Shown: one piece after another, positions 1,963 through 19,434 of the stretch | Numbering within the stretch: position 1 is the first letter of the stretch | Layout: each line of letters starts with the position of its first letter | Origin: Minisyncoccota bacterium | Lineage (GTDB): Bacteria; Patescibacteriota; Minisyncoccia; Phycocordibacterales; UBA9973 | DNA length: 64,000 bases | Direction of reading: 5' to 3' | Assembly: GCA_041662205.1 (NCBI GenBank) | Contig: JBAZSZ010000001.1 | Span: 295,978 to 359,977 of the forward strand | Position numbers and translations under genes: made by a program | Notes under the pieces: model-generated | The model's database searches: none | Told to the model about the DNA's origin: nothing | Seen by the model: only the letters and a program-made list of their open reading frames with translations

Positions 1963-3342
1963 ATGTCATTAAAATTTTACAACACTCTAACACGAGAAAA
2001 AGAAATTTTTACTCCACTTGATCCACATGAAGTTCGTATGTACACTTGTGGTCCGACAGTTTATAACTATACTCACATAGGCAACTTGCGCGCTTTTGTC
2101 TTTGCTGATATTTTACGCCGTACTTTGCAATATTATGACTTTGAAGTAAAACAAATAATGAACATCACTGACATCGGTCATCTTTCCAGTGATGCGGATT
2201 CAGGCGAGGATAAAATGACCAAAGGGCTCTTGCGTGAAGGAAAAGAATTAACCTTAAAAAATATGCGTGCCTTAGCAGAATTTTATACTGACACTTTCAA
2301 GCAAGATTTAAAAATACTTAATATTAAAATGCCAAACGGCATGTATTTTGCAAGTGATTACATAAAAGAGGATATTGATCTAGTAAAAAAATTAGAAGAA
2401 AAAGGATATGCTTATCGCACCACGGATGGCGTGTATTTTGATATTTCAAAAATGCCAGACTACGGGGCACTCTGGGGTGGTAAAAGAGATTGGAATAAAG
2501 AAGGCGCTCGTTTAATTGAAAATTCTGAAAAAAGAAACCCTGAGGATTTTGCTCTTTGGAAATTTAACAACACAATCGGTTTCGAATCCCCTTTTGGTAA
2601 AGGTTTCCCAGGTTGGCATATCGAATGCTCAGCAATGGGATTAAAATTTCTAGGAGAGCAATTTGATATTCATACTGGTGGGATTGATTTAATTCCTACT
2701 CATCACACCAACGAAATAGCTCAATCTGAATGCGCTACTAGTAAAAAACCATTCGTCAAATTTTGGATGCACAATGAATTCGTTGATACTAGTGGAGAAA
2801 AGATGTCTAAATCATCTGGAAATTTCCTCAGAACCCAAAACTTATTGGAAAAAAATATTAATCCCCTTGCTTACCGTTTTTGGCTCCTAATGGCTAATTA
2901 TCGCACAAAGGTCAACTTTAACTGGGAAGCGCTAGAAGCATCAGAAACAGCCTTAAAACGCTTATACGGCCTATACACAAGCCTGGGGGCTGATATAGGA
3001 AACATTCACAAAGAATATCAAAATAAGTTTAAAGAATTTATAGAAAATGACTTAGACACACCTAGAGCACTATCATTATTGTGGGACGTTTTCAAGGATA
3101 AAAATATGTCCGATAGCGACAAAAAAGCAACTATTCTTGATTTCGATAAAGTGTTGGGACTTGGCTTCGAAAACTTAAAACAAGATATAATTCCAGAGGA
3201 AATTTTGAAACTAGCTAATAAACGCGAAGAAGCTCGCCAAAATAAAGATTTCCAAAAATCTGATGAACTAAGAAAAGAAGTGAATTCTCTGGGTTATGAA
3301 ATAAAGGACACTTCGGAAGGACAAAAGATTTCTAAAATTTAA
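1963..3342 (+). CDS. cysS: Cysteine--tRNA ligase
   Basis: class I aaRS motifs HIGN and KMSKS, CGPTVYNYTHIGNLR N-terminus, 459 aa. Confidence 0.95.
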   Translation: MSLKFYNTLTREKEIFTPLDPHEVRMYTCGPTVYNYTHIGNLRAFVFADILRRTLQYYDFEVKQIMNITDIGHLSSDADSGEDKMTKGLLREGKELTLKNMRALAEFYTDTFKQDLKILNIKMPNGMYFASDYIKEDIDLVKKLEEKGYAYRTTDGVYFDISKMPDYGALWGGKRDWNKEGARLIENSEKRNPEDFALWKFNNTIGFESPFGKGFPGWHIECSAMGLKFLGEQFDIHTGGIDLIPTHHTNEIAQSECATSKKPFVKFWMHNEFVDTSGEKMSKSSGNFLRTQNLLEKNINPLAYRFWLLMANYRTKVNFNWEALEASETALKRLYGLYTSLGADIGNIHKEYQNKFKEFIENDLDTPRALSLLWDVFKDKNMSDSDKKATILDFDKVLGLGFENLKQDIIPEEILKLANKREEARQNKDFQKSDELRKEVNSLGYEIKDTSEGQKISKI

Positions 3343-3910
3343 AAATCTTTTTGCGGTAAATACAAAAAACAACTGCTAAATTTATTATTATAAAATAGAT
3401 ATTGAAAGAATAAATAGAAAAAATCCAATTTTTAATAATCAATAAACCCAACATACTATTTAAAGCAGCTATCAAATATACAGTACTCGCTTCAGTCTCT
3501 GGAAATTTCCAAGATTTTATTAGCGTCGGTGTTGCCGCTAAGCCATCACTTAATATTGCAAAAAAAATAGAGATTCCTAAATTATGAGTAATCATATAAA
3601 GTATCAAGGATGTAATGGCAAGTGCTCCACAATATAAATCAAAAGCATTTATTTTCCAATAACCGTTTTTAACTAAAATTGCTGTAATAATAATTACTAA
3701 AGAAAAAAAGGCGTCCATAAATATCGGCAAACTTACAAGCCCCGCACCTGCTTTATATTGAAAAAATACTCCAATAAGCGGAGCCAAGACCCAAATAAAC
3801 CAAGAAACTAAATTAGGCTTTGCCCGCCCACTTATTATGCTTTTGATATAAGAAAAATGACCCAAAAAACTTAGAAGAATAACGATATAAATAATATTCT
3901 GAGAAATCAT
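3332..3910 (-). CDS. Multi-pass membrane protein of unknown function, immediately downstream of and coupled to dnaJ
   Basis: 192 aa, 5-6 hydrophobic helices; start 2 nt after dnaJ stop. Confidence 0.45.
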   Translation of the reverse strand: MISQNIIYIVILLSFLGHFSYIKSIISGRAKPNLVSWFIWVLAPLIGVFFQYKAGAGLVSLPIFMDAFFSLVIIITAILVKNGYWKINAFDLYCGALAITSLILYMITHNLGISIFFAILSDGLAATPTLIKSWKFPETEASTVYLIAALNSMLGLLIIKNWIFSIYSFNIYFIIINLAVVFCIYRKKIFKF

Positions 3911-3911
3911 T

Positions 3912-5012
3912 TTAGATCCCCTCTTTTTTGAGTTCTTCTATGAGGGTACGAGAAGAGCGGGAAAGTTTTGACGGAAGTTTGATGTTGAGTTTGATTAACA
4001 GATCCCCTCTTTTATTTTTTCCTGCAGGCACTCCTTTGCCACGAACACGAAGAATTTCATTAATAGAAACTCCCTCTGGAATCGTCACTTCAATTTCTCC
4101 GTCTAAAGTTTGAATGGGATATTTCACTCCCAATAAAGCGTCAGAAAGCTTCAAATTTAGATTCATTACCAAGTCATTGCCTTCACGCTTAAACACTGGG
4201 TGCGGGGCAACATTTATTTTTATATAAAGATCTCCTGTTGTTCCTTTAGAAACTGCCTCACCATAACCCGTCATGCGGATCATCTCACCATCACGTATGC
4301 CTGCTGGAATCACAATAGAGACCTCTTCTTCACGGCGAAGGACTCCTTTACCTTTGCATTTTTCACAAATTTCTTTTGGTACTTCACCCGCACCCAGACA
4401 AACTTCACAAAGTTTTGTACTAGCAATATTTCCAAAAATTGTTCTTTTTGATTCACGAATTTTTCCTTGACCATTGCAATGCTTACAGGTTTCCATTTTA
4501 GTCCCGACTTTTGCACCAGAGCCTCCACATGTCTGACAAGTGGAAGTTTTAGTAATTAAAACTTTTCTATTTACGCCAAAAATGGAATCTGCAAAAGAAA
4601 TTTGAATCTCAGTAGAAATATCTCGGCCTCGGCGCACCTCTTGCCTTCCTCCACCCATTCCACCTCCAAAGAAATCACTAAAAATATCATTCAGGTCAAA
4701 TTCTGCAGAACCATTTTGAAAACCTCCAAAACCTTGAGAGAAATCGAATCCTCCAAAACCTCCTTGCCTTGGGTCACCGTAGCCTCCTTGTTGTCCCATA
4801 TTTTCAAAACCTGATCCATATTGATCGTATTTTGAACGTTTGGCGTCATCAGAAAGCACTTGATAAGCTTCATTTGCTTGCTTGAATTTTGTTTCATTAC
4901 CACCCTTTTTATCGGGATGATATTTTTGCGCCAACTTATAAAAAGCCTTCTTAATTTCATCTTTGGAGGCAGTTTTTTCAACACCTAAAATGTTATAATA
5001 GTCTTTATTCAT
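3912..5012 (-). CDS. dnaJ: Chaperone DnaJ (J-domain, G/F-rich linker, 4x CxxCxGxG zinc-finger, C-terminal domain)
   Basis: [12 protein letters not shown]-domain; repeated CxxCxGxG motifs. Confidence 0.95.
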
Positions 5013-5027
5013 AAGGTTATTTTGCTA

Positions 5028-6545
5028 TTATATCATAGGTTCAGCCTCTTGTGAAGTCTTAGTTTTTGTTTTTAGATTTTCTTCTACTGCCTCGCCGGAA
5101 CCTTCTGTATCGACGGATTCTCCACTTACCTTTTTTCCTTTATTTTTTCCTTCAATAATCGCTTTTTCTTCTGCACTTCGAATAATGGTGGCTTCTTCTT
5201 CAGCAATAAGTTTCGCTGCATCACCTTTTGGTATTGAATATTTTCTGCGAGAAGCTGCTATGATCTCTTCTCTATAAGATGGATGAGTAGGTGGTAACAC
5301 CCGTAGAGTCTCCGCAGAAAAAGGATCATAAGATTCTCCATCAATGGTCATTTTGATATAAAATTCTGTAACTGCTAGATTGATCATATCTTTCACATCA
5401 AAGAGTGGAGCAAATTCCGGCTTCATTTTGACGGCATCCTCACCACCAATACGAAAAGTGATAACACTCCCGACATTACCCAGGACTGCTTGATGAACTT
5501 TTGGTAAAATCTGTCCGACATACTGATGCGCGATAGTTAAATTAAGCCCGTATTTACGAGCCTCAGATAAAATATTTTCAAAAGTTTGGGTAACGACGTT
5601 TTGAAACTCATCAACGTATAAATAAAAATCTTTACGTTCTCTTTCTGGTATAGCCGCACGTTCCATACCCGCTTGTTTTATTTTTGTTAAAAACATCGAA
5701 CCGAGAAAAGAAGAATTCTCCTCACCTAGTCGGCCTTTAGAAAGATTGATAAAGATTATTTTTTCTTGATTCATTAATTCACTAATATCAATTTTATTTT
5801 GTCTTTGGCCGAAAATATTTCGAAGCAATGGATCAGAAAGAAATTGTCCGAGTTTGTTTACAAGCGGGATAATGGCATCCGTATCAAATTTTTCAGACCA
5901 ATCAGCGAATTCAATAGCGAAGAATCTTTTGACCATGTCATCTGTAATATATTCCACCACTTTCTGTCTGTAATTTCTATCCGTCAACATTGAAATCATC
6001 CCACGCATGGTTGCATGAGGGTAATCCAAAAGTGCTAAACAAGTAAAACGAAAAACGTGTTCCAGACGAGGAGTCCAATTCGCTCCGAACTGTTTTTGAA
6101 AAACTTCAATCAACCCTTGAGTCAATTGAAATTTAAACATTGGATCGACATTTGCGAGCGGATTGAAAGATGCGGGAAATTCAGTATCTGGCGGATCTAT
6201 AATACAGACATCTTCAATACGTTCTTTTGGCACATAGTCTAACATTGCGTCTATTAATTCACCGTGTGGATCGATAATGCAAAGCCCATGTCCATACGAA
6301 ATGTCCTGCCGAAGCATTAGTTCCATAAGTTTTGATTTGCCAACTCCAGACTTTCCAACTATATAAAGATGCCTACGACGATCTACTCGTTTAATACCAA
6401 AAACGAATTTTTTCTCTTCTAATGAAGCGACGTAATTAGTTCGCCCGATAAAAGAAACATCATCAGGTTTTACTTTTCCAAAAACAGGTAGCTCTGGTGG
6501 TGGTGGTCCGTATTTTATTATTTGCACTCGATTCGGCTTGGACAT
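5028..6545 (-). CDS. TM-less TraD/VirD4/TrwB-family (type IV coupling protein-like) P-loop ATPase, paralog 1
   Basis: RRRHLYIVGKSGVGKS Walker A preceded by Arg cluster; IIDPHGEL; FNPL; Walker B DFYLYVDEFQN; TraG-D_C-like block LTIAHQYVGQI..GNVGSVITFRIGGEDA; no TM helices; start 15 nt downstream of stop... (stop 15 nt upstream of dnaJ start). Confidence 0.7.
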   Translation of the reverse strand: MSKPNRVQIIKYGPPPPELPVFGKVKPDDVSFIGRTNYVASLEEKKFVFGIKRVDRRRHLYIVGKSGVGKSKLMELMLRQDISYGHGLCIIDPHGELIDAMLDYVPKERIEDVCIIDPPDTEFPASFNPLANVDPMFKFQLTQGLIEVFQKQFGANWTPRLEHVFRFTCLALLDYPHATMRGMISMLTDRNYRQKVVEYITDDMVKRFFAIEFADWSEKFDTDAIIPLVNKLGQFLSDPLLRNIFGQRQNKIDISELMNQEKIIFINLSKGRLGEENSSFLGSMFLTKIKQAGMERAAIPERERKDFYLYVDEFQNVVTQTFENILSEARKYGLNLTIAHQYVGQILPKVHQAVLGNVGSVITFRIGGEDAVKMKPEFAPLFDVKDMINLAVTEFYIKMTIDGESYDPFSAETLRVLPPTHPSYREEIIAASRRKYSIPKGDAAKLIAEEEATIIRSAEEKAIIEGKNKGKKVSGESVDTEGSGEAVEENLKTKTKTSQEAEPMI

Positions 6546-6608: not shown

Positions 6609-8285
6609 TTAATATACCTCTTGCTGATAACACTTCTCGCAGTAGACAATCTCCGGCCTTTCTGGAGCAAAATTAGTGATAATTTTTTTCTGACATTTAG
6701 CACAATTACGATCCCAGAATTTATATGGACCTCGACGAATTACCCGATCTTGATGCCTGCAATAAAAACATTTTCTTGAAATTGGAATATTTATTTTTCG
6801 GTAAAATAAAAGTTCTTGATCTATAACCTTATAATTTCTTTTACAAGAAATACATTTTAAAATTTCACTCGTTATAGAATCCTCCACATCTTTTATGTGG
6901 TCAGGAATATCTTCTGTTTGTAATGTTTCTTTACCTTCTGTCTTTTGAATATCAACTTCCCATCTATAACCTTGCGCGAGAGCTTCTTCTTTTGAAAGGG
7001 GGAAATTTTCTTGAGCCATAGTTTCATTGTAGGCAAAAGGAGCAAGCTCATAGGATATCATTAATCCATATAAATCTAGATCAGTTAATTCTTTTATTAT
7101 TTTTTCCCTTAATCTTTCATACTCTTCTTTAGAATATTGCTTATTTAAAATAAAATATTGTCCATTTTTCAATCCATCACAACCAATACAGTTTTTGCAA
7201 TTCCTATTATAAAATCCATATAAAACATTACTGGAATTCTCTACTGCATAAGAACCAATAATATTATTCCCATACCCAGAAGCTACTACTTCGAGCAACT
7301 GTTCAGAGTTTATCCCATGACCAATTGTACCGATAGAATCTTTTATATGCTTTGACGAGTGAGTATGATGACAGTCTTCCCCATTGTTTATCTCAAAAGA
7401 TTTTTGAACATTTTTACACGAAAAAAGATAATCTCCCGTAGAATTTACAGTTTTTATATTATTATTTTCTCGCATTGGAAAATTTAAAATAAATTTCTCA
7501 AATTCTTTTTTAAATTCCTCTAATTTCTTATAAGATCCTAAAATATCACTCACTTTTTTAGTGTACTCATCTGCCCCCATCGGCTTATTTAAGAAATAGT
7601 GAGATTTATTATTCAAATTAACACAACCAAAACAATTTAAAACATTTCTACAATTAAAGACAAAACAAGAATCTACTGAACTGTTTATATTTTGACCATA
7701 AAGAATCCCAGAAGAATGTTGAATATTTATAGATTCGTAGCATCTTTCTACTTTTATTCCAAAATACAAATCACTAGAATCCTTGACATCTATTGCTCCT
7801 CTAGAATAAAGCACTTCCTCGGCTGGTCCAGTGTTGAAAACAAGATAACAATTCTTGCATCCACCAGCCATATTGATATACTCGCTATTTATGTTTGGAC
7901 CTGGACCAATAGAAATATAGGTAGTAATTTTAGGAACTTTTAATAAGAGCTCTTTATAGTGTTCTAAAAAAGATCGATTCTCATCAAAATCCATAGCATA
8001 ATCTCTCGCTTCCCATTTTTCAGAATAAAAACATTTTTCACAATAAATAACATAAGGGGATTTTGGATTATATATCGAAATAACATTTTTTTCACAGAGA
8101 GCGCATTTTCGTCCTGAATATAAACTCATCTCATTTCTAAATAAAGCGCGCATTATAAAACGACAATCTGGGCATATCTTTGGATTTGGTACCTTCATCT
8201 TTTCATAAAATCCAAGCTCGTCAGAGGAAAATGAAAAATCTTGTTTGCATTTTTTACAGTTTTTTATTTCTTTTATATTTTCCAT
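6609..8285 (-). CDS. Cys-rich multi-zinc-ribbon protein, paralog A (unknown function)
   Basis: 558 aa, about 40 Cys; N-terminal CxxC..FYxKxxVPxPxxCPxCR..RNExxLY..C module repeated near C-terminus; internal CxxCxxCxGC..NLxNK..NKQYSKEEY repeats; tail PERPEIVYCEKCYQQEVY; no signal peptide. Confidence 0.8.
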   Translation of the reverse strand: MENIKEIKNCKKCKQDFSFSSDELGFYEKMKVPNPKICPDCRFIMRALFRNEMSLYSGRKCALCEKNVISIYNPKSPYVIYCEKCFYSEKWEARDYAMDFDENRSFLEHYKELLLKVPKITTYISIGPGPNINSEYINMAGGCKNCYLVFNTGPAEEVLYSRGAIDVKDSSDLYFGIKVERCYESINIQHSSGILYGQNINSSVDSCFVFNCRNVLNCFGCVNLNNKSHYFLNKPMGADEYTKKVSDILGSYKKLEEFKKEFEKFILNFPMRENNNIKTVNSTGDYLFSCKNVQKSFEINNGEDCHHTHSSKHIKDSIGTIGHGINSEQLLEVVASGYGNNIIGSYAVENSSNVLYGFYNRNCKNCIGCDGLKNGQYFILNKQYSKEEYERLREKIIKELTDLDLYGLMISYELAPFAYNETMAQENFPLSKEEALAQGYRWEVDIQKTEGKETLQTEDIPDHIKDVEDSITSEILKCISCKRNYKVIDQELLFYRKINIPISRKCFYCRHQDRVIRRGPYKFWDRNCAKCQKKIITNFAPERPEIVYCEKCYQQEVY

Positions 8286-8313: not shown

Positions 8314-10065
8314 CTAGTATACTTCTTGCTGGTAACACTTCTCACAATACACTATCTCTGGTCGGTCAGGTGCATACGAAGTTTCAAATTCAACTTCACA
8401 TTTTTCATTGCCGTGAAAATGGTTCTCTTTGTCACACATGCAAGATCTATGCCAAATTTTCATAGGATTACGCATTTTTAGTCTATTTTCGTGACGACAC
8501 AAAAAACACAATCTGGGTAAAGGTACTCCGAGTTTTCGATATAAATTTAATTCATCTATAGTTATTTTATATGCTCCTCTGCAACAATTACTGGATTTTT
8601 CTTTATTATCACATCCAATAATTTCCTTCGTGATGGAATCTGTTACATCATCCAAACTAGACGGAAGGTCTTTAGCTTCTATTGTTGTTTGATACTCATT
8701 TACTTTTTTTTCACGCCATCGATAACCCATTTTGATTGCCTGCTCTTTGGAAAGAGGAAAATAATCTTGCGCCTGAGTTTCATTATAACAAAAAGTAGAA
8801 AGTTCACTAGGAAAAAATTCTCCATATTTATAGACAATTCCCCTCTTGTCCACATAAGGCACTTCATTCATCTGTTGTTCAATTTTTGGAATTAATTTTT
8901 CATATTCTTCTTTGGAATATTGTTTATTTAGAATACAATATTTCTTGTTTCGCACACCAATACAACCAAATAAATTTGAGCTTCCATGACAATTAAAAGA
9001 ATATTCAATATCATTTGAGCCATAAATCACACTACCAAAAAGATTACGAGAACCCCCTATTCCCGTATCAAAAACTTCATAAAGCATTTCGCCTTCCCCT
9101 ACTCCAGGACCAGAATCATAAGCATCTTTAAGACTTTTTACTGCCCAGTGTGAAAATTTTGCATCCTCTATGTCTCCAGTTGCGTCAAAACAAATTTTGC
9201 AATTTTTAGTACCTTCTAAATTATCGCCCGTTGAATCCACAGTCTTTATTTTAACAGCAAACCGATGAAGTGATTTTAGGCATATTTCTCTAAACTTATT
9301 TTTAAGTTCTTGGATAGTTCTATAATCCTTAAAACTATATTCTGCTATTTTTTTGTGATATTCTTCTCTAGAAAATTGCTCATTCCACATACAATATGAT
9401 TTATTGCGTAAATTAGTACAACCAAAACAATCTGTACATCCTACGCAATCATAAAGAAAATATGAATCTACACAACTTTTGCAATTTAGAGAATATAATA
9501 AATGATAGCTATCCGAGCAAAGCACGTCTTCATAACAAAGTTCAGAACGATTAACAACGTATAAATCTGCAGAATCTTTTGTTCCTGTAATTCTGTTTGC
9601 ATATAAAGTTCTTTCTATTCTCCAAGAACCGGAACACATATAGCTATCCTTACTAGCTTCCGCAACATTACAATAATCACTGTTTGTATCTTTTATATTT
9701 GAAAGAGATTGCAGAGGAATATTGTCTCTCAAATTTTTCCATTGTTCAAAAAAAGGATTTAAAAAATCATATTCTTTACCATACGAAAGTGGATCCCAGC
9801 CATCACCCCACCAAGCATCAGAACAATATACTGTAAGTTTTTCTTCTGGAGGTAAAAAAGAAATAAGCATTTCATTGTGTCCTGGCGCATCGCATTTTCT
9901 TTTAAATAAAGACATCTCATTTCGCCAAGTTAGACGCCGAATAGTTCTACACTCCGGACAAAAAGTCGGTGGAAGAACTTTTATCTTTTCATAAAAGTTA
10001 AAATCTTCCGGCTCTATAATAAAATCTTGTTTGCAGTTCTGACAGATCTTAGTTTCTGAATTCAT
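8314..10065 (-). CDS. Cys-rich multi-zinc-ribbon protein, paralog B
   Basis: 583 aa; same architecture as A; closest to paralog C; start 1 nt after ATPase-2 stop. Confidence 0.8.
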   Translation of the reverse strand: MNSETKICQNCKQDFIIEPEDFNFYEKIKVLPPTFCPECRTIRRLTWRNEMSLFKRKCDAPGHNEMLISFLPPEEKLTVYCSDAWWGDGWDPLSYGKEYDFLNPFFEQWKNLRDNIPLQSLSNIKDTNSDYCNVAEASKDSYMCSGSWRIERTLYANRITGTKDSADLYVVNRSELCYEDVLCSDSYHLLYSLNCKSCVDSYFLYDCVGCTDCFGCTNLRNKSYCMWNEQFSREEYHKKIAEYSFKDYRTIQELKNKFREICLKSLHRFAVKIKTVDSTGDNLEGTKNCKICFDATGDIEDAKFSHWAVKSLKDAYDSGPGVGEGEMLYEVFDTGIGGSRNLFGSVIYGSNDIEYSFNCHGSSNLFGCIGVRNKKYCILNKQYSKEEYEKLIPKIEQQMNEVPYVDKRGIVYKYGEFFPSELSTFCYNETQAQDYFPLSKEQAIKMGYRWREKKVNEYQTTIEAKDLPSSLDDVTDSITKEIIGCDNKEKSSNCCRGAYKITIDELNLYRKLGVPLPRLCFLCRHENRLKMRNPMKIWHRSCMCDKENHFHGNEKCEVEFETSYAPDRPEIVYCEKCYQQEVY

Positions 10066-10066
10066 A

Positions 10067-12028
10067 TTATTCTAAAATTTTTCTTAAAACATCTTCCGGC
10101 ACTTCTGGTGGATTAGATTTTTGAGACACAGGTGCAGGTGTGGGAGTAATATCCTTTTCTATTTTTCCCGATGTGGCAGTGGCAATCAAATCCTTTAATT
10201 TATTCATATCTTCTGCTGTAGCAGCACGATCATTTTTCATAGGAGGAATAAATTTTTTATTATCTTCATTTTTCTTTTTTAGGGAATCAAGAGAGATTGG
10301 TGCTGGCACAGTTTTATCTTCTACTACTATTTTATTTAAAACATTTTTCAATGACGAAGTATCTCTATTTATTGGATAAGTGGATTTAGGTCTGACAGGG
10401 GCTGGGACTTGTTTTGTGAAAACTTTCTTAAAGGTCTTTATTATTCCTGCAGGTTTTGTTGATACTGGAGCTTGTTGAAATTCGATACCCAAATCAGCTA
10501 ATGGTTTATAAAATTTAGATTCATCATATTTAATTTGATCTTGTCCTCTTTTTTCCACCTTAACTTCTCCAGATTTTATTTTTGCAATACATTCCTTACA
10601 ATAAGCAGCTCGGCCCGGCTCAGGCTTAAAAGGCACAGTTTTTTCTAATTTACAAAGTGAACAAATTACAGGGAATTTTTCTATATTTCCATTTGTAGTA
10701 AAAGTGTCATTACCTAATGACATTCCACTCCATTCATTGATTTCTCGCTCTACCGCCTCGCGGGACCTACAGTAAAGATCACGAGAAGATTTTATTACTT
10801 CTTCTTCCACTTTTTTATCACCGGACTTTACCATGGGCGGCAAGGTCTTAGCAGAAAATGGACGGGAGGTTACACCGTCAATCATTAATTTTAAATAAAT
10901 TTTATAGTTTGGTAAATTTACGATATCAGAAGGAGTAAATTCTGGATCAAATTCTTTTTCTAAAAAATCTGCGTCATCGGAACCAACACGAAAAACTATC
11001 ATTGTACCTACGTTACCAAAGACAGCATCACGCACTGCTGAGCTTTTATCCACCACTAGCTGCGCAGTGTATTGGTGGGCCACGGTTAGATTAAGCCTGT
11101 ACTTTCTAGCCTCAGATAAAATACCAGCAAAAGCATCTGTCACAAAGTTTTGAAATTCGTCCACATATAAATAAAAGTCTTTGCGATGTTCTTCGGGGAT
11201 ACGTACACGCTCCATGGCAGCCAGTTGAATCTTGGTAATGATCATTCCTCCCAAAAGACCAGAGTTGTCTTCACCGATACGCCCCTTAGAAACATTCACG
11301 AGAAAAATCTTCCCGTCATTCATAATATCAAAAATATTAATCGTGCTTTTAGATTGACCCACAACATTACGAATAATAGAGGTAGAAAGAAATTGTCCAA
11401 CCTTATTTTGAATCGGTGCGATAGCTTCATTACGAAATTTATCCTGCCAGGCTTCATACTCATGGACCCAAAAAGCCTTAATCACTGGGTCTTTCAAATT
11501 GGCAATTATTTTCTGACGATAATCTTTGTCCACCAGCATACGAGGAATTCCTAAAAGTGTCGTCCCTGGAGTATCGAGTAATGCTAAAATACAATTATTT
11601 AAAATATATTCCATTCGCGCACTCCAAGCATTCGCCCAGATTTTAGTAAAAATACCCATCAGTCCAGAAGCTACTAGATGTTTATATTGTGGATCAATTA
11701 ATTCTAAAACATTAAAACCGATATGGTAGTCTACATCTGCTGGATTAAAATAAACTACATCCTTCATTCGCTCTGGTGGAATAGCGGAAAGAACTCCTTC
11801 GACGAGTTCTCCATGCGGATCAACCACACAAACTCCCTCACCATTTTTAATGTTCTGAATAATCATATTGAACATCAGGACAGATTTACCTGAACCAGAT
11901 TTCCCTAGAATATAAACATGCTGACGTCTGTCTTTGCGCTTGATACCAAAAAGTTGATTTTTATCACGAAAAGTTGTTAGCCCAAGATAAGTAATGTCTT
12001 TTTTTATAGGCAATTCTGGAAGTTCCAT
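10067..12028 (-). CDS. TM-less TraD/VirD4-family P-loop ATPase, paralog 2, with C-terminal CxxC-x17-CxxC zinc ribbon and K/P-rich tail
   Basis: RRQHVYILGKSGSGKS, VVDPHGEL, FNVL, DFYLYVDEFQN, LTVAHQYTAQL; C-terminal ICSLCK..PFKPEPGRAAYCKEC resembles the PxRPxxxYCxKC tail of the Cys-rich paralogs. Confidence 0.7.
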   Translation of the reverse strand: MELPELPIKKDITYLGLTTFRDKNQLFGIKRKDRRQHVYILGKSGSGKSVLMFNMIIQNIKNGEGVCVVDPHGELVEGVLSAIPPERMKDVVYFNPADVDYHIGFNVLELIDPQYKHLVASGLMGIFTKIWANAWSARMEYILNNCILALLDTPGTTLLGIPRMLVDKDYRQKIIANLKDPVIKAFWVHEYEAWQDKFRNEAIAPIQNKVGQFLSTSIIRNVVGQSKSTINIFDIMNDGKIFLVNVSKGRIGEDNSGLLGGMIITKIQLAAMERVRIPEEHRKDFYLYVDEFQNFVTDAFAGILSEARKYRLNLTVAHQYTAQLVVDKSSAVRDAVFGNVGTMIVFRVGSDDADFLEKEFDPEFTPSDIVNLPNYKIYLKLMIDGVTSRPFSAKTLPPMVKSGDKKVEEEVIKSSRDLYCRSREAVEREINEWSGMSLGNDTFTTNGNIEKFPVICSLCKLEKTVPFKPEPGRAAYCKECIAKIKSGEVKVEKRGQDQIKYDESKFYKPLADLGIEFQQAPVSTKPAGIIKTFKKVFTKQVPAPVRPKSTYPINRDTSSLKNVLNKIVVEDKTVPAPISLDSLKKKNEDNKKFIPPMKNDRAATAEDMNKLKDLIATATSGKIEKDITPTPAPVSQKSNPPEVPEDVLRKILE

Positions 12029-12061
12029 ATACTATACATTTTACAACAAAATTACCAAAAC

Positions 12062-12086
12062 AAAAAGCCCTATAAGGGGCTTTTTG
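12062..12086. terminator. Hairpin AGCCC-TATAAG-GGGCT flanked by A-run and T-run (bidirectional intrinsic terminator) between secreted-protein gene and ATPase-2
   Basis: seen in sequence. Confidence 0.5.
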
Positions 12087-12107
12087 TTTTGGTAAAAGAA
12101 AATTATA

Positions 12108-13322
12108 TTATAACCAAGTAAAATTAGTAGCACTATTATTTAATATCTGCACGGTTAATTTTCCAATCGGATTGGTTCCAAAAGTATTATTAAATTTAAC
12201 TTCCAATGTTGCTACTGTTCCAACTACTGTTATAATTTGAGCATCAATTCCTGCTCCTGCTCCTACACCAGCTGTTGCTTCACCGCTGTCAGTACAAGAT
12301 CCACTCACTGTTCCAGCATTATTTATAAACGCACATACAAAAATTCCACCATGGGATCCAGCGTTTACACCATCAGTTACAGTATAAGTAAATGACATAT
12401 GAACGATAGCTCCAGTATTGGCAGTAGGTAAATTTATTGAATAAATTTGTGTATTTACATTATCCGGCATAGAATAAACTTTATTATGAATCATAAATTT
12501 ATGAATTAGCGCTTGGTCTGCAGTACCACTAGAAGTTCCCATAACTGTCGTAGCTAGGTTTATGTCTGCTGGTTGCGCATTGCCAGTAGATAACCCAGCA
12601 TGCAAATGCAAAGCTCCTCCTGTCTTATTTGTTGATAAAACAGTTGCTCCACCTGCTTGAAGAGTCAAGTTATTTCCAGTAGTATCTGCGATGGTATTTC
12701 TTTCCATCCAAATTGTTCTATCAGCTGTGCCCCCAAGAGAAAATAAATTAGTAGGAGATGTTGTTCCAAAACCAACATTACCATCTTTGAAATAAATACC
12801 GGCAGTTGAAGAAGGACCAATCCAAGATTCAGCCAAAGTAGTTAGAGGGTTAATGAGAGAAAAAGAATTGGTAGCATCAAGACGAGTAATATTCGTGGTA
12901 TCAGATAGATCAGTAGAAGCAATACTAATGTCAGCTGATCCATCAAAAGATACTCCAGCAATATTGCGAGCATTTGTTAGTGTGGCAGCGCTACCTGTTA
13001 TACTTCCGACAATTGGATTAGTAACTTCAAAATCTGTAAACCATCCTTTGGTAAGTCTAGACCCAGTTGTTCCGATAGAACCAGTAGATGTAATATCTTT
13101 AGTACCCATATCCAAGGCACCACCCAACACAACTTTTCCTGTAGTTAAATTATTTCCTATTGTAATGTTTGAAGTTGCACTACTGTTTAATGATAAAGAA
13201 CCATTATTTGTAAGACCTGCAGCATCAAATATAAGATTAGCTTCAGCGGGTAAAACTCCGATTCCAATAACAAAAATCAAAATAACAAAACTTAAATTAA
13301 AATATTCAAATTTATTTTTCAT
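12108..13322 (-). CDS. Secreted G/S/T/N-rich low-complexity protein (possible surface/adhesin-like beta-rich protein)
   Basis: N-terminal signal peptide (FVILIFVIGIGVLPAEA); 404 aa dominated by T, G, S, N, A; no recognisable catalytic motif. Confidence 0.6.
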   Translation of the reverse strand: MKNKFEYFNLSFVILIFVIGIGVLPAEANLIFDAAGLTNNGSLSLNSSATSNITIGNNLTTGKVVLGGALDMGTKDITSTGSIGTTGSRLTKGWFTDFEVTNPIVGSITGSAATLTNARNIAGVSFDGSADISIASTDLSDTTNITRLDATNSFSLINPLTTLAESWIGPSSTAGIYFKDGNVGFGTTSPTNLFSLGGTADRTIWMERNTIADTTGNNLTLQAGGATVLSTNKTGGALHLHAGLSTGNAQPADINLATTVMGTSSGTADQALIHKFMIHNKVYSMPDNVNTQIYSINLPTANTGAIVHMSFTYTVTDGVNAGSHGGIFVCAFINNAGTVSGSCTDSGEATAGVGAGAGIDAQIITVVGTVATLEVKFNNTFGTNPIGKLTVQILNNSATNFTWL

Positions 13323-13409
13323 TTTTTTATTTTAATTAATAATAGATAACAAAAATTATACCATATTTTAATAAAAAAATACTAATTATGGTTTTATTTC
13401 CATCATATT

Positions 13410-13431
13410 AAAAGCCCCTTAAGGGGCTTTT
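13410..13431 (-). terminator. Intrinsic terminator after dnaK (AAAAGCCCCTTAAGGGGCTTTT)
   Basis: perfect 7-bp GC stem with flanking A/T runs, ends 9 nt after dnaK stop codon. Confidence 0.7.
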
Positions 13432-13439
13432 AATATGAT

Positions 13440-15356
13440 TTATGCTTTTGATTCTCCGTCTTCAGAAGGTTTTTCTTTAAACTCTGCATCATGGACTTCA
13501 GGTGGTTGTTCTTCGGGAGTCGAAGGTCCTGTACTTGCTGAAGCATCAGTTCCCCCAGCTTTCGCCATCGCCTCCCCTATCTTAGACATTTCGGTAGAGA
13601 GCTCTTCGGTAGCTTTTTTGATCGCTTCTCCATCGGTGCCATCTTTTACCCCTCTCAAAGCAGTTATTTTTGCGTTTACTTCATCTTTTAATTCTACAGG
13701 TATTTTTTCTTCATTCTCTTTAAGAGCTTTTTCGGCAGTATAGATGATCATCTCTGCGGTATTTTTTACTTCTGCATTTTCTTTTTTCTTTTTATCTTCC
13801 TCTGCGTGAAGCTCTGCATCAGCTTGCATTTTTTTAATGTCTTCTTCTTTGAGCCCAGAACTTGCTTCAATTTTAATGGATTGGGTTTTTCCTGAAGCTT
13901 TGTCTTTAGCAGAAACATTTAGAATTCCATTCACATCTACATCAAAAGCAACTTCAATTTGAGGCATTCCGCGAGGTGCTGGTGGCACTCCATCTAAAAT
14001 AAATCTGCCGAGAGATTTATTATCGGACGCCATCGGACGCTCTCCCTGCACAATGTGTATTTCGACAGAAGTCTGATTATCGGCAGCCGTAGAAAATGTT
14101 TGAGATTTACTAGAAGGAATAGTGGTATTTCTTTCAATCAATTTTGTAGCCACTCCTCCCAAAGTCTCAATACCTAATGAAAGCGGTATCACATCGAGAA
14201 GTAATACATCCCGCACATCACCTTGCAACACACCAGCCTGAACGGCTGCACCGAGCGCCACAACTTCATCAGGGTTAATGGACATATTTGGAGCCTTACC
14301 GAAAAGATCTTGCACAGCAGATACAATAGCTGGCATTCTCGTCTGACCACCTACCATGATAATTTCATTTATTTCATTTATTTTGAATGGAGATGCGTCC
14401 AAAGCTCTCTTGGTAATCTTAATAGACAGATCAATATATTCTTTCGCTAGAGATTCCAACATTGCTCGAGACATTTTAAGTAAAAGATGTTTTGGTCCAG
14501 AGCTGTCTGAAGTTATGAATGGTATGTTGATCTCTGTTTCAGTAGTTGTAGAAAGTTCATGCTTAGCTTTTTCAGCAGCTTCTTTTAATCTTTGGTGCGC
14601 TAGAGGATCTTTTATAACATCAATGCCAGACTCTTTTTTATACTCTTCAGCAATCCAAGAAATAATTTTTCTATCAATGTCACCTCCACCCATATGACTG
14701 TCTCCATCGGTAGATTTTACTTCTATCACATCGTCACCTATTTCCAATACAGACACATCAAAGGTTCCTCCACCGAAATCGTATACAACAATCTTTTCAT
14801 TTTTCTTTTTATTAAAACCATAAGCAAGTGCTGCAGCTGTCGGCTCATTGATGATGCGTTTTACGTCAAGGCCAGCAATTGCTCCCGCGTCTTTGGTCGC
14901 TTTTCTTTGCGCATCATTAAAATATGCTGGCACGGTTATTATTGCTTCAGTAATCTTTTCTCCGAGCTTCGCCTCAACATCAGCCTTAATTTTTTGTAAA
15001 ACCATTGCAGAAATTTCTTCCGGTCGATAAAATTTATCTGACATTTTTATTTTTACTCCACCTCCGTCTCCTGTTTCAATTTTAAATGAAGCAGTCTCAC
15101 GATCTTTTTGCACTTCTGGATCATCAAACCTATGCCCCATATAACGCTTTATTTCAGCAATAGTATTTTCTGGATTTGTAACCGCTTGTCTTTTTGCCAG
15201 AAGGCCGACAATACGATCTCCATTTTTTGCAGTCGCCACGACAGAAGGCGTCGTGCGATTACCTTCCACATTCTCCACAATTTTTGGTGCACCACCCTCA
15301 ATGATAGCGACTGCTGAATTTGTTGTACCTAAATCTATACCTATTATTTTACTCAT
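13440..15356 (-). CDS. dnaK: Chaperone DnaK (Hsp70)
   Basis: [10 protein letters not shown].. N-terminus, [11 protein letters not shown]..., 638 aa full length. Confidence 0.97.
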
Positions 15357-15443
15357 ATATTTTATATGTTATTTATAATTTAACTTATATTTCGCGACCA
15401 CTAAAAACTTGTATAAATAGAGTATATATGATAGCGTATTAGT

Positions 15444-15950
15444 ATGTCAAGTTATTCCAAAAAAATACTTAAAAAGTTAACTGAAAGACCTGCAATTTCG
15501 ACAAAAGATCTAAAAGAAAAAGATGTAAGAACAACTTATGCCATTTCTCGTGCCTTAAAAAATCTAATAGAAAGCAAATGTGCTGAAATTCATGAATCAG
15601 GAAGACAAGATTATGTAAAAATTACTCCGCTTGGAAAAAATAAATTAAATACCTTGCTCTTAGAAAATGACGAAGCATTAGTCCCGCAAAATTGGGATGG
15701 ATTTTGGCGAATTATTTTACTAGACCTGCCAGAAAACAGAAAGGCTGAACGTGAATCTCTACGTTATCTTCTTAAAAAAGCTGGCTTCGTTTGTTTAAAA
15801 AATTCTGCGTGGATTTCCCCTTTCCCTTTTGAACATTTATTTACAAATATAAAGCGTGACCTAGACCTCACCACAGAAATGATGATCATCGTCACAGAAA
15901 ATATTGACGAAGAAAGTAAAAAAGTTTTATTTGAAACTTTCGGAAAATAA
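15444..15950 (+). CDS. PaaX-family-like transcriptional regulator (N-terminal wHTH + C-terminal Cas2-fold PaaX_C-like domain), divergent from dnaK
   Basis: NWDGFWRIILLDLPENRKAERESLRYLLKKAGFVCLKNSAWISP matches PaaX WDGKW..R..LR..L...GFG.L...VW.SP block. Confidence 0.6.
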   Translation: MSSYSKKILKKLTERPAISTKDLKEKDVRTTYAISRALKNLIESKCAEIHESGRQDYVKITPLGKNKLNTLLLENDEALVPQNWDGFWRIILLDLPENRKAERESLRYLLKKAGFVCLKNSAWISPFPFEHLFTNIKRDLDLTTEMMIIVTENIDEESKKVLFETFGK

Positions 15951-16013
15951 AAAATCTTTTAATAAACTATCCACAGGCTTACCTGCCTACGGCAGTGCCA
16001 AAGGCGACCAGGG

Positions 16014-17756
16014 CTAGTAAATCTCCTGTTGATAGCATTTTTCACAATAAACTATCTCTGGCCTCTCAGGCGCATAACTCGTTTCAAATTCTATTTCACA
16101 TTTACTTTCGTGAGTATGATTTTCTTTTTCACACATACAAGTTCTTTTCCATAATTTCCATGCTGGTAATTGATAAAACCTTTCATAATATCTACAATTG
16201 GGACACAAAATCGGGAGCGGTATTTTATTTTTCTTATAAAAATCAAGTTCAAAATTTGCTAAACGAAAAGCGATATTGCATTGATGAATACAACTTCCCT
16301 TGTGTGCACATTCTAATACTTCTCCTAAAATTTTATCATCTACTTCATCTATTGTATCGGGAATATTTTCTACAGGTATGGTAATCTGGAAATTCTTTAC
16401 ATCTTGCTCTAACCATCGATAACCGTTTTTTTCTACTTCTGTTTTAGTCATTGGATTAATTTCTTGGGCAAAAGTTTCGTTGTAAGCAAAAGGACAGACT
16501 TCTATAGGAAAAAATTCTCCATATTTATAAACTCTACCCGCCTTGTCCACAAAAGGTATATTTTCCATTTGTTTTATAATTTCTAAGCGAAGTTTATCAA
16601 ATTCATCTTTTGAACAAATTTTATTGAAAATTACATTTTCTTTATTTCTTATTCCAATACAACCAAATAAATTTGAGCTATTAATACAAGAATCAGTATA
16701 CTCCACATTGCTGACAGAACTAAAAGCGGAATGAGAAAATTTCACATTATAATCATTTAGAGATCCAGTAACATATTCATACATCAATTCTGACTTCATT
16801 GCCTGAGAAGAATCCATGGAATCCTTAAAAGACTCCAATACTCTATAACAGTATTTCAAATTTTCCGCATTGTAAACATCAAAACAATTTTGACAATTTT
16901 TTACATTTGAAAGATTATTTCCAGTAGCGTTTACTGAACGTACAATGTTAGTAAAACGATAAATAGATTTTTCTTTTATTTCTTTAAATTCCTTAAGAAA
17001 AACTTCCAGAGAATCCCTGCTTGATAAATTTAATCTTTCTTTTTCTTTTAAATATTCTTCTTTTGAATACTGCTTATTGCGAATATAAAATTCTTTATTA
17101 CGTAAATTGTAAGAAAGTAAGCAATTGCTACAGTTTACACAATCAACTAAAAAATAAGAATCTAAACAATTTTTTGAAAGTAATAAATACTGACAATTGT
17201 AATTTTTCTCACTTTGAATATTCTCATATAAATTTTGCCCTTCGTTAATATTTAAGCAATCAATAATGTCCGTAGACTTATCTACATTCTTTGAATAAAA
17301 AACATTTTCTGAACCCTTAACGACCGAAAATGATAAATAAACATTCTTAGACTCACCCGCATAATTTGTATAATCAGAGTTAATTACATTTCTATGCCAC
17401 AAAGCTAATCGAGGCACGACATTCATTAATTTATTAAATTGCTCAAAAAATGGTCTAGAAAAATCATAATCTCTACTAAAAGAAGTGGCTTCCCAACCAT
17501 CTCCAAACCAACATTCTCGACAATATACAGGGAAAGGCACGGATTCATGGTACATTGAAATAATGTTTTTCTTACACAAATCACATTTACGTTTATATAA
17601 AGTTCTTTCATTACGCCAAGCCATTCTCCTTTGCAACCTACACCAAGGACAAAAAGTAGGTGCGGGAACTTGTATCTTTTTGTAATAATTAAAATCTTCT
17701 GGCTCTATTTTAAAGTCTTTTTTGCAATTCTGGCAATTTTTAGTTTCACTTTTCAT
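16014..17756 (-). CDS. Cys-rich multi-zinc-ribbon protein, paralog C
   Basis: 580 aa; N-terminus CQNCKKDFKIEPEDFNYYKKIQVPAPTFCPWCR..WRNERTLYKRKC; tail FETSYAPERPEIVYCEKCYQQEIY; start 1 nt after paralog D stop. Confidence 0.8.
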   Translation of the reverse strand: MKSETKNCQNCKKDFKIEPEDFNYYKKIQVPAPTFCPWCRLQRRMAWRNERTLYKRKCDLCKKNIISMYHESVPFPVYCRECWFGDGWEATSFSRDYDFSRPFFEQFNKLMNVVPRLALWHRNVINSDYTNYAGESKNVYLSFSVVKGSENVFYSKNVDKSTDIIDCLNINEGQNLYENIQSEKNYNCQYLLLSKNCLDSYFLVDCVNCSNCLLSYNLRNKEFYIRNKQYSKEEYLKEKERLNLSSRDSLEVFLKEFKEIKEKSIYRFTNIVRSVNATGNNLSNVKNCQNCFDVYNAENLKYCYRVLESFKDSMDSSQAMKSELMYEYVTGSLNDYNVKFSHSAFSSVSNVEYTDSCINSSNLFGCIGIRNKENVIFNKICSKDEFDKLRLEIIKQMENIPFVDKAGRVYKYGEFFPIEVCPFAYNETFAQEINPMTKTEVEKNGYRWLEQDVKNFQITIPVENIPDTIDEVDDKILGEVLECAHKGSCIHQCNIAFRLANFELDFYKKNKIPLPILCPNCRYYERFYQLPAWKLWKRTCMCEKENHTHESKCEIEFETSYAPERPEIVYCEKCYQQEIY

Positions 17757-17757
17757 A

Positions 17758-19434
17758 TCAAGCTATATTTTGTTTATAACATTCTTCGCAAGCAATTTTC
17801 TGGTATCCCCATTCCGGCAAATAATATGCATCGACATCCTTTTTACAATAAAAACATTTATATTGATGTGCTTGCAAGATAGTCAAATATTTCAAACTAT
17901 TTTTTATTCGCACATCAAAATGATAACGTGGAAGTGGGATATTATTTTCTTTGTAAAAAGAAAGTTCATTTTGGGCAATATTGAAACGCCAGCCCGTTTC
18001 AGGGCAAATCAGTGCCTGAGTGATGATAGTATTCGGAACGTCTTTGATATCGTCAGGCAACTCCGCTGTAGGCATGCCGTCTACATGACTCTCTGTGACA
18101 TCCTCCCAATAACCGCCAAATTTTAAAATATCTTCTTTTTTAGTTTCTGGAAAATACAGAAAAGCAGTAGAAAAATTAAAAGGTCCCAAGCTCATGGAAT
18201 AAGGTAAAAATTTCCCATATTCTCCACTCTTTTTCATATCAGAAATTATCTTATTTTTTAAAGTTTCATATTCTTCTTTACTATACTGTTTGTTTAAAAT
18301 ACAATATTTCTTTTTCCCCAAACCCACACAACCAAAACAATATTCACATTCAAGACATAGATCTAAATATTCAGAATATCTTGAGGACGACCAACTGGAA
18401 TATTTGAGAGCATAACCACTTGGTTGGCAGGAACTACAATTGCCTGATACTTCTAAATACTGACAACCATTTATGTCGACGCAAGACTCTAATCCTGTGC
18501 CTCTGATACAGTTAGAGCAATCCTTAGAATCAGAGATTGTGAAACAATTTTGGCAATTTTTACAATCAATTAAGTAATCGCCAATGGAATTGAAAACTTT
18601 TAAATTGAAGTTCGGTCTATGCGCCACCTCATTTTTAATTATTTCTTTAAAATGTTTTTTAAGTTTTTGAATAGAATCATAAGAACCAAGATTAAATAAT
18701 TGGATTTTTTTATCATATTCCTCCTTAGAATACTGCACATTTTCTATACAATAGGATTTATTGCGAAGATTCCAACACATAAAACAATTTTGACAGTTTC
18801 GGCAATCATATAAAAAACTTGATTGTATGCAATCGCGGGAATGTTTCGAATAAAAAAGTTTGTAGGAATGATGACATTCAGAAGAATCAAAACATTTTTC
18901 ACTATTATAACAAACAACCACATCAATAGAATTTTTTACCCCTATATTCCTATATGAATAAAATAAATTTTCGCAATCTACCATTGAACGAGAAAGATAA
19001 CTATCCTTACAATTCCAAACATCATCACACCAATCACAACCTGTACTTTTAATACCATCTTGATGCGGACGAGGAACTTTCTCTTGAAGATTTTGTAATT
19101 GCTCAAAAAATAATTTTTTTTCGTCATAGTCTGCCCCATAATCCATCGCGTCCCACTTGTCGCTATACCACTCATTTAAAGTGTAAATCGGATATCTAGT
19201 CTTCTCTGGTAAAACGGTAATTAAACTTTCTCCAGAGAGATCTGATTTACCCCTGCGAAATTTTCCAAACATCCAAAAAGATAAATGTAATTTTACTCGA
19301 CAAAAAAAACAAAGTGTCGGTAATTCAATATCAACTTTTTTATATAAAGATAATTCTTCTTCTGTAATTAAGAAGTCTCGTTTGCAGTGTTCACAAACTC
19401 TAGTTTGCAGGTCCTTTGTATTCATATACATCAA
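17758..19434 (-). CDS. Cys-rich multi-zinc-ribbon protein, paralog D (most divergent)
   Basis: 558 aa; CEHCKRDF..LSLYKKVDIELPTLCFFCR; CRNCQNCFMCWNLRNKSYC..YSKEEY repeats; start overlaps grpE 3' end by about 25-35 nt. Confidence 0.75.
   Translation of the reverse strand: MMYMNTKDLQTRVCEHCKRDFLITEEELSLYKKVDIELPTLCFFCRVKLHLSFWMFGKFRRGKSDLSGESLITVLPEKTRYPIYTLNEWYSDKWDAMDYGADYDEKKLFFEQLQNLQEKVPRPHQDGIKSTGCDWCDDVWNCKDSYLSRSMVDCENLFYSYRNIGVKNSIDVVVCYNSEKCFDSSECHHSYKLFYSKHSRDCIQSSFLYDCRNCQNCFMCWNLRNKSYCIENVQYSKEEYDKKIQLFNLGSYDSIQKLKKHFKEIIKNEVAHRPNFNLKVFNSIGDYLIDCKNCQNCFTISDSKDCSNCIRGTGLESCVDINGCQYLEVSGNCSSCQPSGYALKYSSWSSSRYSEYLDLCLECEYCFGCVGLGKKKYCILNKQYSKEEYETLKNKIISDMKKSGEYGKFLPYSMSLGPFNFSTAFLYFPETKKEDILKFGGYWEDVTESHVDGMPTAELPDDIKDVPNTIITQALICPETGWRFNIAQNELSFYKENNIPLPRYHFDVRIKNSLKYLTILQAHQYKCFYCKKDVDAYYLPEWGYQKIACEECYKQNIA

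Follow-up and report, generated by a model that had tools for sequence, protein, structure and literature searches.

Two paralogous VirD4/TrwB-type ATPases of Patescibacteria and their putative, separately encoded membrane anchor

Much of bacterial diversity belongs to the Patescibacteria, which live in attachment to other cells; the exchange of material with their hosts is a central question. The present analysis concerned two ATPase genes, designated T4CP1 and T4CP2 (T4CP, type IV coupling protein), in a 64,000-nucleotide stretch of contig JBAZSZ010000001.1 from a Minisyncoccota bacterium, hereafter the window. In a reading to which we give about even chances, their products are the soluble ATPase subunits of a chromosomal, Patescibacteria-wide, membrane-tethered two-ATPase machine that originated from a monoderm coupling protein. 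Translations and profile searches identify both as divergent P-loop ATPases of the VirD4/TrwB lineage, paralogous and almost always encoded close together. The fission/fusion relation that links them to a third gene, u453, and the distribution of a zinc-ribbon tail were observed directly, as were the degree of conservation and the restriction of the chaperone synteny to one clade.

T4CP1 and T4CP2 share 46% identity across 429 amino acids (E=1e-136). A first-pass annotation of this DNA had described them as paralogous ATPases with a characteristic set of motifs, and the translations bear this out: both carry the Walker A motif R-x-R-H-hhh-G-x-SG-xGKS with its upstream arginine cluster (RVDRRRHLYIVGKSGVGKS in T4CP1, RKDRRQHVYILGKSGSGKS in T4CP2), followed by IDPHGEL and FNPL in T4CP1 or VDPHGEL and FNVL in T4CP2, and they have in common the Walker B motif YLYVDEFQN and an AHQY..Q...GNVG..I.FR block. 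The P-loop motifs of the nucleotide-binding domain (NBD), GKSGxGKS and hhhhDEFQN, are intact in both. T4CP1 is built of a linker motif, an NBD of RecA type with an all-alpha insertion, a C-terminal beta/alpha cap and, after it, an acidic disordered tail; in its AlphaFold2 (AF2) model (mean predicted local distance difference test, pLDDT, 79), an all-helical insertion (residues 135-245) stands between the strands of a RecA-like core. T4CP2 has in addition a C-terminal extension made of a CxxC-x17-CxxC zinc ribbon (amino acids 451-483; zf_Tbcl_2, E 1.8e-8; TIGR04272, E 2.3e-9) and a basic tail (isoelectric point, pI, 9.2) that is probably disordered. The absence of transmembrane helices, also claimed earlier, was confirmed by a hydropathy scan, in which the maximal Kyte-Doolittle mean over 19 residues reached 1.05 in T4CP1 and 1.13 in T4CP2, against 2.8 for a genuine permease of the window. 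The closest relatives are Nomurabacteria/Paceibacteria metagenome-assembled genomes (MAGs), and T4CP2 is 100% identical to a protein of a 'Candidatus Paceibacterota' MAG.

The assignment to the TrwB/TraG-type family, first made from motifs, was upheld by Pfam, where TrwB_AAD_bind (35.6 bits for T4CP1, 40.6 bits for T4CP2; gathering cut-off 20.5) and T4SS-DNA_transf (29.4 and 31.4 bits; gathering cut-off 20.1) both passed, with weaker scores for TraG-D_C (21.8 and 24.7 bits). DUF87/HerA came close behind TrwB_AAD_bind, by a small margin (33.9 and 36.2 bits), but its match in T4CP1 was limited to the P-loop stretch 57-136, while the TrwB_AAD_bind alignment covers 56-364. A profile built from 28 diverse family members ranked TrwB first among PDB sequences (7.9e-8), then DotL (1.1e-5) and then HerA (5e-4), and a HerA or FtsK identity of the two proteins was rejected on the ranking of the Pfam, NCBIfam and PDB profile comparisons. 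The best NCBIfam match was the VirD4-like CD1115 family, together with the SXT/TOL TraD families, but membership at equivalog level (TraD, VirD4-like CD1115 etc.) failed, with a best score of 48.8 bits against a cut-off of 250. A fold search with the T4CP1 model returned the DNA-translocase superfamily (TrwB, VirB4, DptH, HerA, FtsK) as top matches; the predicted fold would thus belong to the VirB4/VirD4/HerA branch, within which fold similarity alone cannot separate VirB4, DptH, TrwB and HerA, and it is the sequence profiles that favour VirD4/TrwB over HerA for the pair.

T4CP1 does not match the DUF87 central domain of HerA over its full length, and no NurA- or Sir2-type partner was present among the scanned open reading frames (ORFs) of the window; this Pfam scan, which covered most ORFs longer than about 140 amino acids and left some 15 smaller or shadow ORFs aside, also gave no relaxase and no VirB4. 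T4CP1 and T4CP2 likewise lack the FtsK_SpoIIIE motor domain with its gamma domain, and the AAA_10 or CagE_TrbE_VirB profiles and N-terminal domain of VirB4/TraC-type ATPases. The all-alpha domain inserted in the NBD of coupling proteins is present in the AF2 model of T4CP1, while the N-terminal transmembrane anchor within the same polypeptide is missing from both proteins. Within ±10 kb in 81 related loci, judged from annotated recurrent gene clusters, no relaxase or VirB4-type gene was found. A replacement of FtsK was considered and dropped, on the weak evidence that TM7x transcriptome papers mention FtsK.

The missing membrane anchor appears to be supplied in trans by u453, which is single-copy in the window. 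Many representatives of the ATPase family are longer (700-1,100 amino acids) and carry an N-terminal extension of 290-400 amino acids that often begins with a hydrophobic helix and has no Pfam match. In blastp, u453 aligned nearly over its full length to the extensions of 61 of the 150 top family representatives, with E values down to 2.5e-38. The junction of the fused proteins reads ...LNxEELAtLfHxP...SKkgePPxnLP...TxFaxTNFR..FGIK.DRRRH.Y..GKsGxGKs. The C-terminal linker of u453 reads ...EELATIWHFP...SKEASPPTNLPI, the protein of the window terminates in ...EELATIWHFPGQILKVPTLERIESKEASPPTNLPI, T4CP1 opens with MSKPNRVQIIKYGPPPPELPVFG... and T4CP2 with MELPELPIKK.... The PPxxLP linker is thus the start of both ATPases, and u453 ends just beyond it; on this comparison, the two ATPases therefore begin exactly at the linker that follows the N-domain. 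From these alignments, u453 would be the separately encoded, membrane-anchored N-terminal half of a coupling protein, and T4CP1 and T4CP2 would lack transmembrane segments because gene fission placed this front half in a gene of its own. The earlier description of the pair as cytoplasmic is not supported, given a two-helix N-terminal half which the same window encodes separately and which many relatives carry in one polypeptide with the ATPase.

The relation was also visible in gene order. We mapped homologues of the window genes onto 81 loci, i.e., 80 from species-representative genomes (the best 80 of 592) and one from a metagenome. A u453 homologue lay at most 3 kb upstream of T4CP1, on the same strand, in 25 of the 65 loci with sufficient upstream sequence, and the gap was only 8 nt in locus L070. 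In a rough neighbour-joining tree (distance-based and midpoint-rooted), the forms fused to the N-domain fell between a short T4CP1-like clade and a C-terminally extended T4CP2-like clade, a topology which is compatible with a fused ancestor.

A link to Gram-positive conjugation was found through a plasmid of Bacillus subtilis (NZ_CP032854.1, 24.7 kb). Its 886-amino-acid 'DUF87 domain-containing protein' WP_121549396.1 aligns to residues 2-434 of T4CP1, linker included (27% identity, E 7e-34), and a hidden Markov model of 27 u453 homologues matches the N-domain and linker of the same protein (48.9 bits, E 2.3e-17 in a single comparison). Downstream of it lie genes for a Replic_Relax protein, TcpC, TcpE and an AAA_10 (VirB4-like) ATPase; this gene content marks the locus as a Gram-positive conjugation module, with WP_121549396.1 at the position of the coupling protein. 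The profile match and the module context together indicate, therefore, that the architecture of N-domain plus ATPase is shared with monoderm conjugation modules. The tblastn search of a plasmid collection that contained this record returned 309 records, none of which reached 60% identity and most of which are typed as non-mobilisable; the best match, from Sulfitobacter (36.7% identity), was set aside, since it lies among transposases in an uninformative context.

The pairing of the two ATPases and their conservation are those of a stable chromosomal unit. Of the 33 loci that extend 8 kb or more to both sides, 29 had T4CP2 no further than 10 kb from T4CP1, and the conserved unit consists of T4CP1 and T4CP2 with 0-7 copies of a cysteine-rich (Cys-rich) gene. 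Tandem double-ATPase fusion proteins of about 1,200 amino acids (P0290, P0310 and P0371), from organisms of high-GC-looking sequence composition, offer independent support of the Rosetta-stone type for two modules that would work together. Across the genomes sharing the arrangement of the window, median identity was 86% for T4CP1, compared with 83.5% for DnaK, 77% for DnaJ and 59% for CysS; T4CP1 is conserved as a core gene is, unlike a mobile or defence gene. Identity was 83-91% among the 120 relatives listed, the family is very large, with 21,386 cluster representatives (clustering at 50% identity) matched at E<=1e-3, and the GC content of the pair resembles that of surrounding genes. The two paralogues are distinct in type: of 54 full-length T4CP2 orthologues, 51 carry the zinc-ribbon tail (consensus C..C....TVPF.P..GRPVYC..C), as against none of 82 T4CP1, regardless of nearby Cys-rich genes.

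The four Cys-rich proteins of the window contain 5-6.5% cysteine and are 31-44% identical to one another. They bear a zf_Tbcl-type ribbon and a CxxC-x17-CxxC ribbon at each end; in the copy next to T4CP1, Pfam recognised zf_Tbcl N-terminally and zf_Tbcl_2 C-terminally. A CxxC-x17-CxxC domain binds zinc in small Methanosarcina proteins (PMC12704099). The AF2 model of the 583-amino-acid copy (pLDDT 82) shows a beta-solenoid core, which holds CxxCxxCxxC-like runs, between zinc-ribbon modules at both ends, and the PDB gave only weak solenoid matches to it, none significant. The C-terminus ...RPEIVYCEKCYQQE(V/I)Y is near-invariant in three of the four copies. These proteins are neutral to acidic (pI 5.6-7.3) and have no signal peptide, and their more than 7,600 homologues are all annotated as 'hypothetical'. 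The tie between the ATPases and the Cys-rich proteins that had been proposed on first inspection is real as an association, as Cys-rich genes occur within ±10 kb in 57 of the 81 loci, distant ones included, but not as an exclusive role, since some lineages keep the pair without them. The ribbon type shared with the T4CP2 tail, the variable copy number and the conserved C-terminus make the Cys-rich proteins plausible clients or adaptors, and the best candidates for such partners in Paceibacteria. A small multi-pass membrane protein, mem192, was found in 26 loci; it sits among the Cys-rich genes in the distant loci L030, L032, L035 and L061, and it had no Pfam or NCBIfam match.

From a mechanistic point of view, u453 would tether a hetero-oligomeric T4CP1/T4CP2 motor, probably ring-shaped, to the membrane. 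The T4CP2 tail, with its zinc ribbon, could act as a recruiting arm for partners, much like the tails at the C-termini of TraD and DotL, and ATP hydrolysis would feed a substrate to a membrane channel. This channel would most plausibly be the non-conjugative type IV secretion system (T4SS) of the phylum, or else the motor would serve an autonomous route or an independent function. In Paceibacteria, the Cys-rich zinc-ribbon/beta-solenoid proteins may be the clients or adaptors. A bolder form of this proposal, which we put forward tentatively and with a good deal less confidence, is that the pair and u453 constitute an undescribed, near-universal housekeeping motor for secretion or uptake, descended from a conjugative coupling protein but independent of conjugation and possibly of VirB4, with an EccC-like multi-ATPase logic and the Cys-rich proteins as dedicated cargo or adaptors.

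The phylum-wide background is in part documented. According to a recent survey (Quinonero-Coronel et al., 2025; PMC12102498), 5,713 VirD4-like homologues occur in 2,918 of 3,035 Patescibacteria genomes (96%) and VirB4 in 2,417 of them (80%), with just 148 VirD4-like genes near virB4 and just 109 relaxases in the whole set. On these counts, about two orphan T4CP-like genes per genome were therefore already known, to which the survey assigned no role. It concludes that the T4SS of Patescibacteria derives from monoderm machinery, with which the architecture shared with monoderm conjugation modules agrees, and its authors state that exaptation 'cannot be ruled out'.

Several points weigh against a membrane-tethered machine of coupling-protein descent. 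As reported in the survey, the T4CP homologue of Southlakia is non-essential while its T4SS is essential (PMC12102498); together with the higher frequency of T4CP-like genes than of VirB4, this argues against a simple role as T4SS coupling protein. The Bacillus homologue WP_121549396.1 has no predicted transmembrane helix. In the lineage of the window, u453 lies about 25 kb away from the ATPase genes, and its N-domain matches no known fold or function (searches of Pfam, with single sequences or with all 27 members at E<=1, of NCBIfam and of PDB sequences gave no match). Several lineages hold the ATPase pair with no Cys-rich genes nearby, so the Cys-rich proteins cannot be the whole story, and zinc-folded cytoplasmic proteins would be awkward secretion substrates. 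The locus sample is skewed to close relatives of the window. What lies beyond homology and gene order, namely interaction, localisation and substrate, we infer from sequence. A protein-handling or coupling role, with the Cys-rich proteins as candidate substrates, was rated somewhat above DNA handling; the chaperone-unfoldase, defence and remnant models all ranked far below these two.

The strongest competitor, which we nonetheless regard as unlikely, is that the membrane-tethered pair pumps DNA, either in natural transformation with ComEC or type IV machinery or in some other membrane task. Zinc ribbons of the type found in T4CP2 and the Cys-rich proteins often bind nucleic acids, and would do so here; the superfamily that supplied the top fold matches consists mostly of DNA translocases. 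Gene order can be read in the same sense. In more distant Paceibacteria and in genomes labelled Giovannoni-, Morani- and Uhrbacteria, other contexts replace that of the window, and one recurrent order is SecD-SecF-(HARE-HTH/sigma70_r4 protein)-u453-(DEDDh exonuclease)-T4CP1-[Cys-rich]n-T4CP2-(EF-P-like)-MnmA. The HARE-HTH/sigma70_r4 protein always stands 5' of u453, a DEDDh/RNase_T exonuclease gene stands between u453 and T4CP1 in 16 loci, and four distant loci (L044, L056, L059 and L078) have ComEC-like genes 2-5 kb downstream of T4CP2, recognised from sequence alone by a membrane domain plus a metallo-beta-lactamase part. However, these neighbours may reflect plain housekeeping synteny: the HARE, u453, (YceG), exonuclease and MnmA genes remain clustered at about 29-34 kb in the window, so that in this lineage it is apparently the ATPase/Cys-rich block that moved into the grpE-dnaK-dnaJ region while they stayed behind. 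The neutral to acidic character of the Cys-rich proteins also speaks against a DNA motor, relaxases are almost absent from Patescibacteria (PMC12102498), and ComEC-dependent competence is not essential in Southlakia according to a review (PMC12857230).

In the window itself, these neighbours are a sigma-70 region 4 plus HARE-HTH (RNAP-delta-like) protein (33077-34108, minus strand), which immediately precedes u453, as it does in 23 related loci, and a DEDDh/RNase_T-type 3'-5' exonuclease (30234-30761, minus strand), which a YceG gene separates from u453 and which adjoins MnmA.

The first-pass annotation located dnaJ, dnaK and the Cys-rich genes correctly, and from this placement it derived a cytoplasmic hexameric unfoldase or translocase for the Cys-rich proteins, read here as a free complex that acts on them with DnaK and DnaJ. 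The locus comparison makes this quite improbable, although the ATPase and Cys-rich genes are indeed interleaved with grpE, dnaK and dnaJ in the window and its close relatives and the Cys-rich genes are conserved neighbours. The arrangement with dnaJ 3' of T4CP1 and dnaK 5' of T4CP2 is restricted to the clade nearest the window (35 of 81 loci, nearly all with at least 82% T4CP1 identity and the lowest at about 75%). Elsewhere, the pair stands in the SecDF-HARE-u453-exonuclease context or, in another Paceibacteria clade (L030, L032-L035, L037, L054 and L079), in the order Nramp-T4CP1-CutA-cytidylyltransferase-[Cys-rich]n-T4CP2. Co-transcription with dnaK finds no support, as two strong terminator-like hairpins intervene between dnaK and T4CP2, and dnaJ has a promoter-like site of its own (11/12 match, extended -10 TG); hairpins and promoter-like site are pattern matches rather than proof. 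Because of these elements and the clade-restricted synteny, the chaperone adjacency looks incidental, and we argue that the dnaK/dnaJ neighbourhood reflects a lineage-specific relocation of the block, without bearing on its function. A membrane-anchored partner domain exists in u453, and a normal ClpB is encoded at 36164-38896. A coupling of the pair to the chaperones was accordingly rejected.

A HerA-like or defence ATPase (cf. DptH, HerA-NurA, HerA-Sir2 and MADS mad8), acting with a nuclease on foreign or damaged DNA, is more improbable still. The DUF87 score close to that of TrwB_AAD_bind, the PADLOC matches to mad8 (E 5e-13) and to HerA models, and the exonuclease gene adjacent in some lineages would suit such a role, but defence genes are patchy and fast-evolving, while the pair is as conserved as DnaK, in fixed housekeeping synteny, and VirD4-like genes are reported from 96% of the genomes of the phylum. 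No NurA, Sir2 or Dnd partner was present among the scanned window ORFs, the profile searches prefer VirD4/TrwB to HerA, and the nearest homologue from a cultivated organism with an informative context lies in a conjugation module. As PADLOC gave generic ATPase matches only and the conservation pattern was opposed, a defence-system identity was rejected. A decaying, functionless remnant of an integrated conjugative element, for which homology to conjugation-module ATPases and the lack of nearby relaxase/VirB genes might be invoked, is effectively refuted by the intact catalytic motifs of both copies, the identity among relatives and family size given above, the conserved synteny and a GC content like that of surrounding genes.

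The features discussed are listed in Table 1. The annotated genes of the window are all housekeeping genes (CysS, RecR, GrpE, DnaK, DnaJ, ClpB, RpoA, ribosomal proteins, AlaRS, MnmA, BipA, IF-2, GyrA, Mur ligases and SecA). At 13440-19987, the grpE-dnaK-dnaJ operon is interrupted, with two Cys-rich genes after grpE, and a PaaX-like regulator with a Cas2-like middle domain (15444-15950, plus strand) is divergent from dnaK, a position kept in 15 related loci; it may substitute for HrcA. Between dnaK and T4CP2, bracketed by both hairpins, a 404-amino-acid ORF (12108-13322, minus strand) has an N-terminal signal or anchor and is rich in Ser, Thr, Gly and Asn; it had no family match, and no homologue across the 81 related loci at E<=1e-8. 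In the Nramp/CutA clade, metal-handling genes stand beside those of zinc-rich proteins, a proximity that could be meaningful or fortuitous. Of two neighbouring ORFs, each about 400 amino acids long (24302-25555 and 25560-26759, minus strand), one has only a weak FtsA-like (actin-fold) match and the other matches no family.

Table 1. Positions in the window of the ATPase pair, its putative anchor, the Cys-rich genes and neighbouring features.
Feature	Coordinates	Strand	Description
T4CP1	5028-6545	-	505 amino acids, ATG start; short VirD4/TrwB-type ATPase
T4CP2	10067-12028	-	653 amino acids, ATG start; T4CP1 paralogue with C-terminal extension
u453	31687-33030	-	447 amino acids; two predicted N-terminal transmembrane helices (about amino acids 22-61) and a soluble domain of about 390 amino acids, from translation
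Cys-rich paralogue	6609-8285	-	558 amino acids; between T4CP1 and T4CP2; 38% identity to the 583-amino-acid copy
Cys-rich paralogue	8314-10065	-	583 amino acids; 1 nt from the T4CP2 gene
Cys-rich paralogue	16014-17756	-	580 amino acids; upstream of dnaK; 44% identity to the 583-amino-acid copy
Cys-rich paralogue	17758-19434	-	558 amino acids; directly downstream of grpE; 31-33% identity to the other three
mem192	3332-3910	-	192-amino-acid multi-pass membrane protein, 3' of dnaJ; module membership tentative
dnaJ	3912-5012		directly downstream of T4CP1
dnaK	13440-15356		upstream of T4CP2
grpE	19400-19987		
Terminator-like hairpin	12052-12095	-	19 bp, then T-run; just upstream of T4CP2, parts it from the dnaK-side genes
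Terminator-like palindromic hairpin	13402-13439		after dnaK

If the reading as a membrane-tethered machine is right, a duplicated, split and chromosomally fixed descendant of a monoderm coupling protein would give structure to an acknowledged gap in the biology of Patescibacteria. A count of orphan VirD4-like genes becomes a defined and testable module, made of two paralogues, a split and anchored N-domain, a ribbon tail and, in Paceibacteria, Cys-rich partners. The chaperone coupling is removed as a tempting but wrong lead, and the sequence link to the conjugation ATPases of Gram-positive bacteria offers a cultivable organism for study.

Compared with the orphans of Quinonero-Coronel et al. 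(2025), the separate gene for N-domain and anchor, the distinction of two paralogue types, the tail with its zinc ribbon and the Cys-rich neighbours are additions to what the accessible text of that survey describes (PMC12102498); a limited literature search turned up no account of the separate anchor gene, of the two types or of the Cys-rich partners, which does not prove that none exists. Similarity in fold and sequence to EccC/EssC of type VII secretion is much weaker than to VirB4/VirD4, and no other type VII component was seen, which makes this resemblance an analogy rather than membership. Unlike the VirD4/TrwB/TraD coupling proteins (TrwB of R388, PDB 1e9r; DotL; Cag-beta), the ATPases of the window have no transmembrane helices in cis; they form a fixed duplicated pair whose anchor would reside on a separate N-domain protein of about 390 amino acids, and they are chromosomal, with housekeeping-like conservation, no relaxase/VirB genes found nearby and scores far below the NCBIfam equivalog cut-offs. 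Another close likeness is to WP_121549396.1, the DUF87-type ATPase at the head of a Gram-positive Tcp/pLS20-like conjugation module. It differs from the system of the window in being a single fused polypeptide, plasmid-borne beside a relaxase, TcpC, TcpE and a VirB4-like ATPase, and in having neither zinc ribbon nor Cys-rich partners, but its architecture of N-domain plus ATPase is the same as that of the fused forms of Patescibacteria.

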